64,000 bases of DNA from an uncultured candidatus Porisulfidus sp. (GCA_965199685.1 OZ241323.1:90619-154618), one strand, 5' to 3'; shown: positions 36,258 through 51,613, counted from the first letter of the stretch. Numbers and translations are program-made. Notes: a model not told the origin generated them from the letters alone.

Positions 36258-36480
36258 GAAAATGCTTAATGTTAAAAAACAACTTAAGAAATTTTTGAAT
36301 AGAGATAGTAGCATACTATCTGCTACTAATCGGATACCTAATACTGACCCATTCTATGGGTAACCAAATATTGCAGGGCGCATTCAAATACTGAGGAAAC
36401 AATTCTCCCCCTCAAAACAAATGTCTCAGCTATTCCGAAATATATTTATGGTCGCCGCAGACGTTGTAAATCAAACTTCA
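36258..36480 (+). pseudogene. Degraded fragments of a DUF900 alpha/beta-hydrolase gene (paralog of 50582..51613)
   Basis: MLNVKKQLKKFLNRDSSILSATNRIPNTDPFYG* and ..QMSQLFRNIFMVAADVVNQTS match the N-terminus and the residue ~205-225 region of the 343-aa protein. Confidence 0.55.
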
Positions 36481-36621
36481 GCTTAATTGAAATAAAGTTA
36501 AGGTTCGCTAAAAAATCATTCAAGTTATAAGGAGAAACAGATTAATGGCAACAAAAAAATATACTATCAGAGCCAAGCAGTATATTAAAACAATAAAAAA
36601 AGAATATGCTAAGTTAGAGCA

Positions 36622-38835
36622 ATGGACTTAATTAAAACTAGAATGATTCTTAAAAACCTCCTTAAAGCAGTAAAGCAAAAAACATATCCGAGAATTAGAA
36701 AAATTCTTGATAATAAATATATAAAAGCACTAAATCGATACATCAAGTATCATCCTATAACCTTAAAAGTATCTCACTACCTGAGGGCATTCGCTGGTGT
36801 AAGCAAAGAAAAATTTCTAAAAATAAATCAGCTACTAAAACTTGAGTGATTTATGCAAATGTTAAAAGGATGGCTATCAGAAGCAGGCCGAGAGCTTATC
36901 AAAACAATAGAAGAGGGGTTTTCATCGCTATGTCAAATTCTTATGAAGATACTAAAAAGACTCTGTAACATAATAGTCAACATAGGTATTTGGTTCAGAA
37001 AAACATGGCAGGCAATAAAAAGGGCAGTACGAAAAACATGGCGGGTGATAAAAAGAGTGGCGCGAAAAACATGGCGGGCAATACAAAAGGCAGTACGAAA
37101 AACATGGCGGGTGATAAAAAGAGTGGCACGAAAAACATGGAGGAAATGCACACAGTTAATAAAAAAACTCCTAGGATGGATCACAACAATAGGTGTGTTT
37201 GCATTTCTAATCATTGCTGCACTAATAGCATACCCATTCTTTTTATTTTATATAGACAGAGTAACATGGGAGATAATATTGTGGCTGTTATGGATAGTCT
37301 TCTCATATTTTGGTATATACAAAGTTAAATCAGCTCCTAGTGCTAAAGTAAAAATAAATCCCAATAATTTAATAAGGGAAATTATTCAATATCCTATAGA
37401 GTCAATCCTCAAACTAGAAATCTCAAAACTTGTAACATCAGGTTCCCCTTATTTACTATCAACAGCAGCCGGAACTTGGGGCTTATGCATTTTTGTTTCT
37501 TGTGGTTTTTCAATGAATAATGATGTTGGTATAGTTAGCAATTCGGGAGAGGAATCAGTAAAATGCGAACAAGAGTGCATAGTATCGACTCCAAGTGACG
37601 ACCTACCGGAACAGACTCAAAAAAATACCGGAATTTCACTAAACTTAGATGAACATCTTTCTACGCAAACAGAAGTTCTACTAAACATAAATAGGCATCT
37701 TTCTACTCTACTAGAAATTTCATTAAACCTAGATAAGCAACTCTCTACACAAACAGGAATTTTACGCGACCTAAAGGAACACTCTTCTACGCAAGAAGGA
37801 GTTTTACGCGACCTAGATAGGCACCTTTCTACGCAGACGGGAATTTTACTCAGCGTAGATGATCGCCTGTCTACGCAGACAGAAATTTTACTCAGCGTAG
37901 ATGAACGTCTTTCTACACAAACAGGAATTTTACTCAGCGTGGATGAACAACTTTCTGCGCAAACAGAAACTTTACGAGACGTAGATAAGCATCTTTCTAC
38001 ACAAACAGGAATTTTACTCAGCGTGGATGAACAACTTTCTGCGCAAACAGAAACTTTACGAGACGTAGATAAGCATCTTTCTACACAAACAGGAATTTTA
38101 CTCAGCATGGATAAGCATCTTTCTACACAAACAGGAATTTTACTCAGCGTAGATGAACAACTTTCTGCGCAAACAGAAACTTTACGAGACGTAGATAAGC
38201 ATCTTTCTACACAGACAGGAATTTTACTCAGCATGGATAAGCATCTTTCTACACAGACAGGAATTTTACTCAGCGTGGATGAGAGTCTTTCTACGCAGAC
38301 GGGAATTTTACTCAGCGTAGATGAGAGTCTTTCTACGCAGACGGGAATTTTACTCAGCGTAGATGAGCGTCTTTCTACGCAGACGGGAATTTTACTCAGC
38401 GTAGATAGGCACCTCTCTACGCAGACAGGCATTTTACTAAGCGTAGATAAACACCTTTCTACACAAACAAAAGTGCTACTAAACCTAGATGAGCGTCTTA
38501 CTACGGGGACAGAAATTTTACTAAACCTACATGAGCATAATATAGACGAACTAATTCACAGACATGAGAAATTTATTTATAATAATAATCCCTGTCTTTA
38601 CCATGCCTTATTCACAGGTGGTGAGATAAATACTGCCAAAGCAAAAATTTTAGAGAAAGAAGCACACTCCGTATGTGGCAGTAAAAAGAGTGTCATGGCA
38701 ACAACCCATAAAATACTTGATAATCTTAAGGTTTTACGCAGTGAGGATGAATTTAATAAATTCCAATTTGGAGAGTGTGGAATAAAGATCAAAGAAATAT
38801 TGAAACATATGGAACGTGAAAGGTGTCCAGATTGA
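36622..38835 (+). pseudogene. Tandem-repeat membrane protein, paralog of 48016..50526, interrupted by an in-frame TGA at 36850
   Basis: 36622..36849 and 36853..38835 are in the same frame and together align to the 836-aa protein. Contains ~20 tandem 42-bp (14-aa) repeats, (R/Q/H)LSTQTGILLSVDE, at ~37620..38530, and two TM helices. The downstream part (36853..38835) could still be expressed from its own ATG. Confidence 0.55.
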
Positions 38836-50526: not shown

Positions 50527-50581
50527 ACCTCCAGTTATTTTTTAGCCAATGGCATCGCTGTATTTTTAGAGGGGAACCGTA

Positions 50582-51613
50582 TCAATTTTCTGAAAATAAA
50601 AGTTGATGATTCCGCTCAGGCGGATCCACTCGCCCGGTTTCAAGTGCAGTTGCTATGTGTTGAATAATCGGACTTGGTCTAGATAAATCCTCATTCTTAG
50701 CTAGAAAATACGTATGGCCTGCGGGATCATCAAAAGTATTATTGAAGTCATCGCAATCAACAGCGTAGACATTTTTAGGTACTTTATTCATATCCTCTGG
50801 TCCTGTCATGCCTAAGCGACGAGACAGACCAGAACGGACAATATTCGCTATCTTGCTTGCCGGCATTGCATAATCATCGTTTGCATAATAAACCACAACA
50901 TTTCGTGCAGCTTGGGGAATATATCGCCCTTTTTCTCTTTTTTCTAATGTTTCATTTACAACGTCCGCGGCTACCATAAATATATTTCGGAATAGCTGGG
51001 GCATTTGCCTTGACGAGGAAATACCACCTGCCCAATATCTGAGTGCCTCTCGTAACACACGGTTTCCCATAGAATGAGCCAAAACATTAATGCGTTTATA
51101 ACACTTTTCGTCTTGCTTATGACGCCAGGTATCAAATTTACCAAGCATTCGAGCAAATGCTTCCGCACTTATATTGGCAGTACTTCGGTCATCGTAGTAA
51201 TCATTTAGTTTAGCAAAAGTACCATCGTCGTCACATGGCCAAATCAATGGTATAACGCGAACATAATCTTCACCTAAATCTGCATTTCTATCAAGCAGTT
51301 TCTGAAGGTCTATAGCTTTTTGGAAAGCACCATCCTCCATACGATTATTAAATCCATGAATAAAAAGTAGGATTTGTTTACAGTCTCTGTCTTTACTTAG
51401 TTTTGTGAAAAAACTATCGTTCCCTATTTCTATATAATCATCCTGAGATTTTCGTTCACAAAAAAACATGTGCTGACTGGCCGTAATGTTTTGTGGATTA
51501 AAGCTAACATTTCTACCAATTGCTGTGTTTTCGCCTTCGTTAGGCATCCGATTAGTAGCAAATAACATATTACCTCCTAAAAATTTCCAAAATTGTTTTC
51601 TAACATTCAGCAT
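50582..51613 (-). CDS. Alpha/beta hydrolase, DUF900 family
   Basis: LLFIHGFNNRMED and nucleophile elbow AHSMGN, as in DUF900 (PF05990) hydrolases. Confidence 0.65.
   Translation of the reverse strand: MLNVRKQFWKFLGGNMLFATNRMPNEGENTAIGRNVSFNPQNITASQHMFFCERKSQDDYIEIGNDSFFTKLSKDRDCKQILLFIHGFNNRMEDGAFQKAIDLQKLLDRNADLGEDYVRVIPLIWPCDDDGTFAKLNDYYDDRSTANISAEAFARMLGKFDTWRHKQDEKCYKRINVLAHSMGNRVLREALRYWAGGISSSRQMPQLFRNIFMVAADVVNETLEKREKGRYIPQAARNVVVYYANDDYAMPASKIANIVRSGLSRRLGMTGPEDMNKVPKNVYAVDCDDFNNTFDDPAGHTYFLAKNEDLSRPSPIIQHIATALETGRVDPPERNHQLLFSEN

Follow-up and report, generated by a model that had tools for sequence, protein, structure and literature searches.

A recurring two-gene cassette of a DUF900 hydrolase and an orphan tandem-repeat membrane protein, embedded among insertion sequences in an uncultured gammaproteobacterium

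Two copies of a hydrolase and repeat-protein gene pair

The stretch of DNA analysed here (hereafter the window) comprises 64,000 nucleotides from an uncultured candidatus Porisulfidus sp. (GCA_965199685.1 OZ241323.1:90619-154618); positions are counted from its first letter. Between positions 36,258 and 51,613 lie two copies of a pair of genes, encoding (i) a DUF900 alpha/beta serine hydrolase and, immediately downstream, (ii) a membrane protein that carries a long array of tandem repeats. Copy A is located on the minus strand and copy B on the plus strand. Copy B is a pseudogene remnant: its hydrolase is dead, and its membrane-protein gene is broken at the 5' end. The coordinates of both copies, their domains and their flanks are collected in Table 1.

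The pair is not confined to the window. Hydrolase and membrane protein are found together, in identical order and with a spacing of 55-83 bp, at no fewer than five loci of one European Nucleotide Archive (ENA) metagenome assembly (L001, L004, L039, L041 and L044). The hydrolases that lie upstream of true relatives of the membrane protein are close paralogues, with 78-91% amino acid (aa) identity. Transposase genes are present at four of the five loci (L001, L004, L041 and L044), and none is seen on the 4.9-kb contig of L039. The DNA at issue is a recurring two-gene cassette, restricted to one lineage and embedded among insertion sequence (IS) elements.

The limits of the cassette were drawn from blastn alignments. 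Homology begins at position 51704 with L001 and L004, and at 51691 with L039, L041 and L040 (the last a locus that contains the hydrolase without the membrane protein). It extends from approximately 90 bp upstream of the start of the longer hydrolase open reading frame (ORF) and ends with the large gene, at its stop codon. The cassette itself showed neither terminal repeats nor target duplications, and a promoter scan gave nothing above the shuffled expectation.

Table 1. Positions of the cassette genes, their domains and repeat arrays, and the flanking IS elements in the window
Feature	Position	Strand	Evidence
IS481-family transposase fragment, directly upstream of copy B	35648..36169	+	inverted repeat I1, 323 nt at 89%
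Copy B hydrolase pseudogene, with stops	36262..36477	+	tblastn, sequence, inverted repeat I12 at 86%
Copy B membrane/repeat gene, disrupted	36546..38835	+	ORFs, alignments, tblastn
Small second array of copy B, 33/66-bp unit (11 aa, RKTWRVIKRVA), basic loop	36998..37147	+	TRF, repeat family D6
42-bp (14-aa) array of copy B, 21 units	37630..38538	+	TRF, parsing
Copy B C-terminal domain, homologous to that of A but shorter	38539..38835	+	alignment
Full inverted IS481, 4 kb from copy B	40267..41355		NCBIfam transpos_IS481, E 3.3e-53
IS3-family element (orfB 298 aa, orfA 64 aa), directly downstream of copy A	46784..47853	-	NCBIfam transpos_IS3, E 1.6e-95
Copy A membrane/repeat protein, orphan (830 aa from ATG 50508)	48016..50508	-	ORF
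C-terminal His/Cys-rich domain of A, ~135 aa	48016..48425	-	five-member alignment
93-bp (31-aa) array of A	48426..49620	-	TRF, unit parsing, identity matrix
Second bilobed hydrophobic domain of A, aa 214-269	49720..49887	-	two hydrophobic stretches, EKE between
Basic helical domain of A, aa 101-213	49888..50226	-	alignments, A/B identity
First bilobed hydrophobic domain of A, aa 52-100	50227..50373	-	Kyte-Doolittle scan
Copy A hydrolase, DUF900 alpha/beta serine hydrolase (328 aa)	50582..51568	-	ORF, Pfam
Conserved cassette leader	51569..51704	-	blastn boundaries
Degraded IS3 remnant upstream of copy A, split by small dispersed repeat	51764..52117	-	direct repeats D9, D13, D11; blastn

The copy A hydrolase

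A first-pass annotation, made from the sequence alone, had placed on the minus strand a hydrolase ORF at 50582..51613 and an 836-aa ORF at 48016..50526, and had assigned the former to DUF900. Both ORFs are present at these coordinates. The hydrolase ORF opens with an ATG at 51613 and would encode 343 aa; the ATG at 51568 (Met16) is the likely true start, since the consensus of the orthologues begins there and the protein collection holds the 328-aa form. The family assignment is sound: the product of the longer ORF matches Pfam DUF900 (PF05990) with an E-value of 1.5e-24 and a score of 87.2 bits, against a cut-off of 20.5, over profile positions 10-223 of 232. The nucleophile, Ser181 (343-aa numbering), lies within the motif AHSMGN. 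Together with Asp217, Asp246 and His300 it is invariant in alignments of 17 and of 65 sequences, so that the GxSxG-type elbow and its Asp and His partners are all in place, with two candidates (Asp217 and Asp246) for the catalytic Asp.

An AlphaFold2 (AF2) model built from the 65-sequence alignment is confident (predicted local distance difference test score, pLDDT, 90.8), and displays an alpha/beta hydrolase fold of the pancreatic-lipase/phospholipase A1 (PLA1) type. The structurally nearest protein is hornet-venom PLA1. Structural alignments with lipase and PLA1 structures show 13-17% identity, and the hydrolase has no match among the sequences of the Protein Data Bank (PDB). Membership in the pancreatic lipase or venom PLA1 family is ruled out: Pfam reports DUF900 only, and the venom enzyme is a structural analogue. 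Read by eye, with no predictor run, the hydrolase sequence shows neither a signal peptide nor a hydrophobic stretch at its N-terminus.

The only characterised enzyme whose homologues mostly bear DUF900 is the archaeal protein cinquedea, a phospholipase A that has been reported to resemble venom PLA1 (bioRxiv 10.64898/2026.06.10.730825). The copy A hydrolase shares with it the DUF900 match, the Ser/Asp/His pattern and the analogy to hornet-venom PLA1. Given the modelled fold and the cinquedea precedent, the copy A enzyme is best taken to be a lipase or phospholipase. The two proteins differ in setting: cinquedea is secreted, stand-alone and bactericidal, whereas the copy A hydrolase has no visible signal peptide, and only in this lineage does a large repeat membrane protein come after the DUF900 enzyme.

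The copy A membrane protein

The longer form of the copy A membrane protein starts from a TTG at 50526, 55 bp after the hydrolase ORF. The ATG at 50508 is the likely start, because a Shine-Dalgarno-like GAGGGGGA lies upstream of it and because it aligns with the starts of two relatives from the protein search described below (P0001 and P0002). The 830-aa product begins with a basic segment that is predicted to be cytoplasmic, and contains neither a lipobox nor a signal peptide. Its two hydrophobic domains span 49 and 56 residues, and the first can be read as a two-helix membrane hairpin. The basic helical domain between them, which is doubled in P0002, is better conserved from A to B than any other segment. 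Positive charge prevails on either side of the first hydrophobic domain, with 13 K/R versus 5 D/E in the N-terminus (56 aa) and 26 K/R versus 5 D/E in the loop of residues 101-218. Applying the positive-inside rule to these K/R-rich stretches predicts an N-in topology of four spans, with the repeats and the C-terminus in the cytoplasm. This placement disfavours a reading of the repeats as a source of surface variation.

Beyond the repeats lies a C-terminal domain (~120-135 aa) with the invariant motif HxIxELIHRH. Residues H, H, H, C, H and C are unchanged in all five available family members, a pattern that could possibly form a metal site. The domain has no match better than E 0.79 among PDB sequences, and no relatives in JGI metagenome contigs (searched with protein patterns) or in IMG/VR; the repeat DNA pattern likewise found no match in JGI metagenome contigs. 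The AF2 model of full-length protein A is all-alpha and of low confidence, with a pLDDT of 45.

Tandem repeats of copies A and B

Tandem Repeats Finder (TRF) reports, in copy A, a 93-bp array at 48426-49310 (9.5 copies, 96% matches, score 1630), with degenerate copies farther upstream. The array noted in the first-pass annotation is thus real, and its count of about 11 near-perfect repeats is slightly too high: when the protein is parsed on its LSTQT anchor it contains 13 units of 31 aa, nine of them near-perfect, along with one 14-aa unit (aa 396-409) and a truncated last unit. DNA identity is 94-100% among the nine central units, and 65-91% when the three N-proximal units are compared with the rest. 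Units that are fully identical comprise two adjacent pairs and one non-adjacent pair (aa 565 and 658).

The 42-bp array that had been described for copy B is recovered by TRF at 37630-38538 (21.6 copies, 78% matches, score 823), and some of its 14-aa units are grouped into higher-order blocks of two or three. Both TRF arrays are far beyond chance expectation, and the repeat finder agrees on their spacing. The core that the two units had been said to share is also borne out, in the form LSTQTxxLL: the 31-aa unit consists of the 14-aa unit (LSTQTxxLL-x-LDKx) plus a 17-aa insert.

The question of whether the repeats form a coiled coil or a beta-solenoid, raised in the same annotation, tilts toward the former. 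In copy B the heptad register is unbroken for some 280 aa: 38 of 40 heptads carry Leu at position a, position d is taken by Q, V or L, and the spectrum has its peaks at periods of 7.0 and 3.5 residues; an a/d hydrophobic periodicity of this kind over a long helical stretch is that of a canonical coiled coil. In copy A the dominant hydrophobic periodicity is 3.45 residues, and each 31-aa unit in the low-confidence AF2 model consists of a ~24-residue helix and a ~7-residue loop at PPxGEY. From heptads and model together, we infer that the repeat region is a coiled coil. A continuous rod is unlikely in copy A, because a Pro-Pro-x-Gly break occurs every 31 aa.

Unit number differs widely across the family: there are 4 units of 31 aa in L044, approximately 6 in L001, approximately 8 in L004, 10 in L039 and 13 in A, and 21 units of 14 aa in B. 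Homologous genes with differing numbers of units, here among paralogues and orthologues, make this a variable-number tandem-repeat family. The differing unit numbers and the homogenised central units of A bear the signature of arrays shaped by unequal recombination or slippage. The first-pass view of the repeats as substrates for such events is therefore upheld, with a restriction as to the consequence. Since unit lengths of 93 and 42 bp are both multiples of three, a change in copy number would alter the length of the protein and not its on/off state; a phase-variable on/off contingency locus is ruled out, the arrays lying within the ORF. The anchor varies as well as the stalk, with between one and three modules across the family: L039 and L044 have a single hairpin, and in L004 the hairpin-plus-basic-domain module is doubled.

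Decay of copy B and its relationship to copy A

The remains of the copy B hydrolase, first noted as fragments at 36258..36480, resolve by tblastn into three pieces within 36262-36477. These correspond to (i) aa 1-25 (36262-36342), (ii) aa 177-193, including HSMGN (36341-36391), and (iii) aa 199-222 (36406-36477). Lost are approximately 150 internal codons and approximately 120 C-terminal codons. The membrane-protein gene is also in three pieces: a 5' piece from the original ATG at 36546 (36546-36630), a frame-shifted 75-aa ORF (36622-36849) and a 660-aa ORF (36853-38835). The 75-aa ORF, which is present in the protein collection as P0171, ends at the in-frame TGA (36847-36849) already recognised in the first-pass annotation; the gene has, in addition, suffered a frameshift or deletion farther upstream, by which the first hydrophobic hairpin was lost.

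Proteins A and B align with 32% identity over residues 81-799 of A (E 4e-89). Their C-terminal domains are 38% identical (E 1e-11) and their N-terminal basic domains 45% identical (E 1.5e-21); homology at the two ends of the proteins had been proposed in the first-pass annotation. At the DNA level the copies match in patches only, with identities of 77-87% (183 nt at 79%, inverted repeat I4; 71-76 nt at 86-87%; approximately 90 nt at 77%). Copy A is closer to copies from another assembly, with 90.5-91.7% DNA identity to the hydrolase-proximal part of L004, L039 and L044. As A is nearer to these than to B, sequence comparison identifies A and B as members of one multigene family, old and diverged paralogues whose opposite orientation is incidental. 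What was initially described as an inverted duplication of a two-gene module is a module indeed, as the five further loci attest, and is not a recent duplication. Nearly all other details of the first-pass description hold.

Relatives of the two proteins

The hydrolase has more than 1,400 relatives, among them orthologues of 45-57% identity in Vibrio, Thalassotalea, cyanobacteria, Desulfobacterota and others. These widespread orthologues are solitary, indicating that the enzyme does not depend on a partner; in 34 genomes no conserved partner was found beside them. Two further hydrolase loci have neighbours of other kinds. On the ENA metagenome contig L042 (2669-8446), a 67%-identical hydrolase is followed by four tandem genes for secreted trypsin-like serine proteases (~480 aa, GGSSGGP), which are unrelated to the repeat protein and were ruled out as its relatives. 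On the IMG/VR viral contig L045 (5001-5975), a 48%-identical relative of the hydrolase lies beside genes that look phage-structural (ORF listing judged by eye, unannotated).

The membrane protein, in contrast, is an orphan. Protein A, run exhaustively with phmmer against 1.84 billion representative proteins, returned 18 hits, of which four are true relatives (P0001, P0002, P0168 and P0171) that match its N- or C-terminal parts; one of the four, P0171, is the copy B fragment of the window itself. The remaining hits within P0169-P0183 are TPR-, HEAT-like or other repeat proteins that align with residues 400-700 only and, except for P0174 with its loosely similar LSTQ...P.GE..PAL motif, were set aside. 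No real match to the family exists in Pfam, NCBIfam or PADLOC. Matches to SKA1, Med9, LmuB and a SoxX fragment (from Pfam, NCBIfam, PADLOC, PHROGs and PDB) are compositional, with 0-1 matched stretches and scores below the cut-offs.

Clusters of ribosomal proteins S12 and S7 and of EF-G place the window in a clade of uncultured gammaproteobacteria, the nearest named genera being Thiohalophilus and Thioalbus (~75% EF-G identity). Sister genomes with 97-100% identical EF-G are absent from the carriers of the 90% hydrolase cluster, which hints that the cassette may be strain-variable.

Genomic neighbourhood

The intact IS3 element and the IS3 remnant lie in like orientation, so that copy A is bracketed by direct IS3 sequences. 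A further transposase gene, of the IS256 family, is found at 45485..46717 (plus strand), split into ORFs of 81 and 318 aa and either frameshifted or subject to programmed frameshifting. Just downstream of the copy A stop codon, at 47914-47943, a perfect palindrome with a 13-bp stem (CGCCGTTTGTTGC CGTT GCAACAAACGGCG) lies within a dispersed repeat; it is found again at 33266-33327. The palindrome is probably not a simple terminator, being without a T-run on the strand of the gene. An excess of terminator-like sites was dismissed, as these are produced by the repeat unit itself and by the dispersed palindrome.

Three ~100-aa paralogues with an 11-aa KADIAELKAET-type repeat and a C-terminal transmembrane (TM) helix are encoded on the minus strand, at 17772-18095, 38928..39251 and 44895..45191. 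One of these is just downstream of copy B, another downstream of copy A past two IS elements; a 33-bp array is present at 44989-45086, and the proteins have no family match. Between the cassette copies, at 42257..43171 (minus strand), is a gene for a 304-aa protein with an N-terminal half that looks multi-spanning (by eye) and a C-terminal pentapeptide-repeat domain (Pfam E 7e-17).

The wider region, from 17 to 45 kb, is made up of lineage-specific cassettes multiplied by segmental duplication, with IS elements in between. Five paralogous ORFs on the plus strand (19650..20534, 23771..24664, 27678..28550, 34843..35727 and 43282..44229) share 82-84% aa identity, one being at 65%. Their N-termini (~65 aa) match the N-terminal portion of isocitrate lyase (NCBIfam PRK15063 positions 3-66, E 7e-11), and continue into a TM segment, an acidic linker and a ~140-aa C-domain. 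At 29127..30773 (plus strand) the 150-aa N-terminal part of these paralogues is fused to an 11-repeat Sel1 protein. It looks, from these sequences, as if the captured 5' end of aceA were used as a common leader of a multigene family. Copies of the C-domain only are found at 18401-18877 (minus), 21106-21534 (plus), 25223-25672 (plus), 33588-34016 (minus) and 39693-40169 (minus), at least two of which are stand-alone ORFs with a hydrophobic, signal-peptide-like N-terminus of their own.

In addition to several IS families, the window encodes Sel1- and TPR-repeat proteins. Two of its ORFs, 4724..6784 (plus) and 7572..9833 (minus), combine an N-terminal helix-turn-helix of the IS3 transposase type (HTH_Tnp_1) with 14-18 TPR repeats, an unusual fusion. 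Dispersed repeats of 60-150 bp, 83-95% identical and in both orientations, are also seen in related metagenome contigs. In the window they lie at 34346-34437, 39520-39611 and 51896-51987; at 34557-34621, 47790-47853 and 52472-52535; and at 19187-19278 and 23470-23549. They resemble miniature inverted-repeat transposable elements (MITEs) or repetitive extragenic palindromic (REP) sequences, and yield spurious short ORFs with 'PPVEGW'.

A possible membrane scaffold for the hydrolase

We infer from conserved adjacency only that the hydrolase and the membrane protein may be physically or functionally coupled. The form of coupling that we favour, tentatively and at somewhat less than an even chance, is that the membrane protein serves the lipase encoded with it as a scaffold or spacer, on the cytoplasmic side of a membrane. 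It is favoured by the conserved order and spacing of the genes, by the lack of a visible signal peptide in the hydrolase, and by the predicted cytoplasmic stalk. In this reading, the product of the second gene is an inner-membrane protein anchored by one to three bilobed hydrophobic hairpin domains, and all of its soluble mass (the basic helical domain, the helical repeat stalk and the His/Cys-rich C-terminal head) is predicted to face the cytoplasm. A 14-aa, two-heptad unit gave rise to the 31-aa unit by insertion of 17 aa. The arrays expand, contract and homogenise through unequal recombination or replication slippage, changing the length of the stalk. This anatomy and these repeat dynamics are shown by the sequences; the tethered protein would position or restrain the lipase at the cytoplasmic face.

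An extended version of this proposal, which we regard as a long shot, is that of a tunable ruler: the hairpins would anchor the protein in the cell's own membrane or, once secreted, in that of a host, the number of repeats would set its reach, and the metal-binding His/Cys head would hold or gate the phospholipase A1. Paralogues with 4-21 units would then represent a graded set of reach lengths. If true, a lipase would here be organised at a membrane in a manner not described before, by means of an orphan family.

Partial parallels exist. The Bdr proteins of Borrelia are paralogous, inner-membrane-anchored proteins with variable numbers of Ser/Thr-containing tandem repeats; they are small and plasmid-borne, with 11-aa repeats and a C-terminal anchor. 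Bdr and the present family are alike in being multi-copy in one lineage, with in-frame variation in repeat number, a membrane anchor and helical repeats that face the cytoplasm (predicted, in the present family), and differ in that Bdr has no lipase partner and no sequence relation to the proteins described here. Among length-setting proteins, such as the type III secretion needle ruler YscP and the phage tape-measure proteins, in-frame duplication of repeats in a helical protein likewise changes its physical length; no phage or injectisome context accompanies the cassette. Identity with a phage tape-measure protein is ruled out, as the PHROG matches to residues 4-113 of the copy B ORF are marginal (E 2e-5 to 8e-4, with none for A) and confined to a basic, low-complexity region, and there are no phage genes nearby.

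Several observations weigh against a scaffolding role. The hydrolase is solitary, with no conserved neighbour, in 34 genome loci and on a Vibrio chromosome, and even the close paralogue at L040 lacks a membrane protein. Adjacency in all copies could be explained by duplication of one ancestral unit. Copy B retains a 660-codon ORF despite its dead hydrolase. The topology was derived from hydropathy and the positive-inside rule, and the full-length AF2 model of protein A is of low confidence. Lastly, Nei-Gojobori ratios of nonsynonymous to synonymous substitution rates (dN/dS) are 0.26-0.61 among the cassette hydrolase paralogues, 0.14-0.20 between the window hydrolase and more distant solitary relatives, and 0.46-1.38 for the N- and C-terminal parts of the membrane protein, values which fit relaxed constraint or decay as well as diversification; dN may be inflated by sequencing error, several of the compared contigs having only 2-3x coverage, and we put no weight on these ratios.

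Alternative explanations

The foremost alternative is that there is no coupling at all: an orphan repeat gene landed downstream of an ordinary lipase gene, and IS-mediated segmental duplication then multiplied the pair as one unit. With IS elements and pseudogenes building up in the genome, the family would be drifting or decaying, and differences in repeat number would be neutral by-products. We judge this unlikely, and take it more seriously than any explanation that follows. It accommodates the solitary orthologues elsewhere, the hydrolase-only L040, the pseudogene status of copy B and the elevated dN/dS. The surroundings fit too, with transposase genes or small dispersed repeats adjoining A, B, L001, L004, L041 and L044 (that is, four of the five other loci), and other segmentally duplicated, lineage-specific genes filling the 17-45 kb region. 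Harder to square with mere drift are the long, intact ORFs kept by several copies (830, 682, 609 and 401 aa), the conservation of the LSTQT core and the C-terminal His/Cys pattern in copies that differ strongly elsewhere, and the retention of gene order and spacer at six or more loci.

Less probable is a host-directed effector pair, in which secretion would deliver the membrane protein into a membrane of the host or of a vacuole, with its stalk in the host cytosol, while the PLA1-like enzyme would act on host lipids. Chlamydial Inc proteins and the hairpin-TM effectors of Legionella are the models for such insertion, and a bilobed hydrophobic domain of ~40-60 residues, as expected of an Inc-like protein, occurs twice in protein A (aa 52-100 and 214-269). 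As in the chlamydial Inc and hairpin-TM coiled-coil effectors, domains of about 50 residues (here 49 and 56) precede long coiled-coil-type regions, and the family is lineage-specific and fast-evolving, as well as multi-copy and seemingly strain-variable. Phospholipase A effectors are common in host-restricted bacteria, and the Sel1/TPR-repeat proteins and many IS elements of the window form a pattern that is common there. Unlike in the Inc systems, the carrier is a gammaproteobacterium and its stalk consists of near-identical tandem repeats; sequence similarity to Inc proteins is lacking, and searches with Pfam, PADLOC, NCBIfam and phmmer gave no similarity to known effector families. No secretion-system genes were seen in the window or in the related loci, and orthologues of the hydrolase occur in many free-living marine bacteria.

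A conflict module is more doubtful again. It could take the form of a lipase toxin with a membrane-bound immunity protein or regulator, or of an abortive-infection anti-phage system that combines a membrane sensor with a membrane-destroying phospholipase. The accessory, multi-copy distribution in IS-rich regions would suit such a module, as would (i) a SocA/Panacea-domain gene and a type I restriction system near related hydrolase genes (L004 and L043), (ii) the phage-structural-looking neighbours of the L045 relative, and (iii) a Tle1-like lipase gene adjoining the hydrolase in L040. The hydrolase has no match in PADLOC, and protein A only a weak coiled-coil match to LmuB (E 2e-3); neither is thus a recognised component of an anti-phage system in PADLOC-DB v2, a collection that includes systems of the hydrolase-plus-TM type. 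A Tle/Tli pair of the type VI secretion system (T6SS) is rejected in particular: there is no Tle domain, the partner has no signal peptide or lipobox, and no T6SS genes are found in the window region or adjacent to the cassette. Moreover, known lipase immunity proteins are much smaller than the partner, which is 5-8 times larger than Tli proteins, and the orthologues elsewhere are solitary, implying that the enzyme is not self-toxic.

That the near-perfect arrays are collapsed or inflated by assembly, and the differences among paralogues mere errors, is very improbable: although several related contigs carry coverage labels of 2x or 3x and the L004 gene is split by an apparent frameshift, five other contigs, independently of the window, have this 93-bp period and unit sequence, the arrays are shorter than 1.2 kb, in frame and contain structured variant units, and the window is part of a 2.88-Mb contig.

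Implications

There is as yet no evidence for a new mechanism; the case is one of tidy repeat evolution that may also hold a clue to the biology of DUF900, a known but poorly understood enzyme family. Without a functional pairing, the locus would still illustrate the expansion and decay of a gene family in an IS-laden genome, and would be of limited general interest. In either event, the family presents a readable series, from the 14-aa to the 31-aa unit, through homogenisation of the central units, to changes in the numbers of repeats and anchors. Should the pairing prove to be functional, it would provide the first cellular context for the large and conserved DUF900 family, and an example of a length-adjustable membrane tether.

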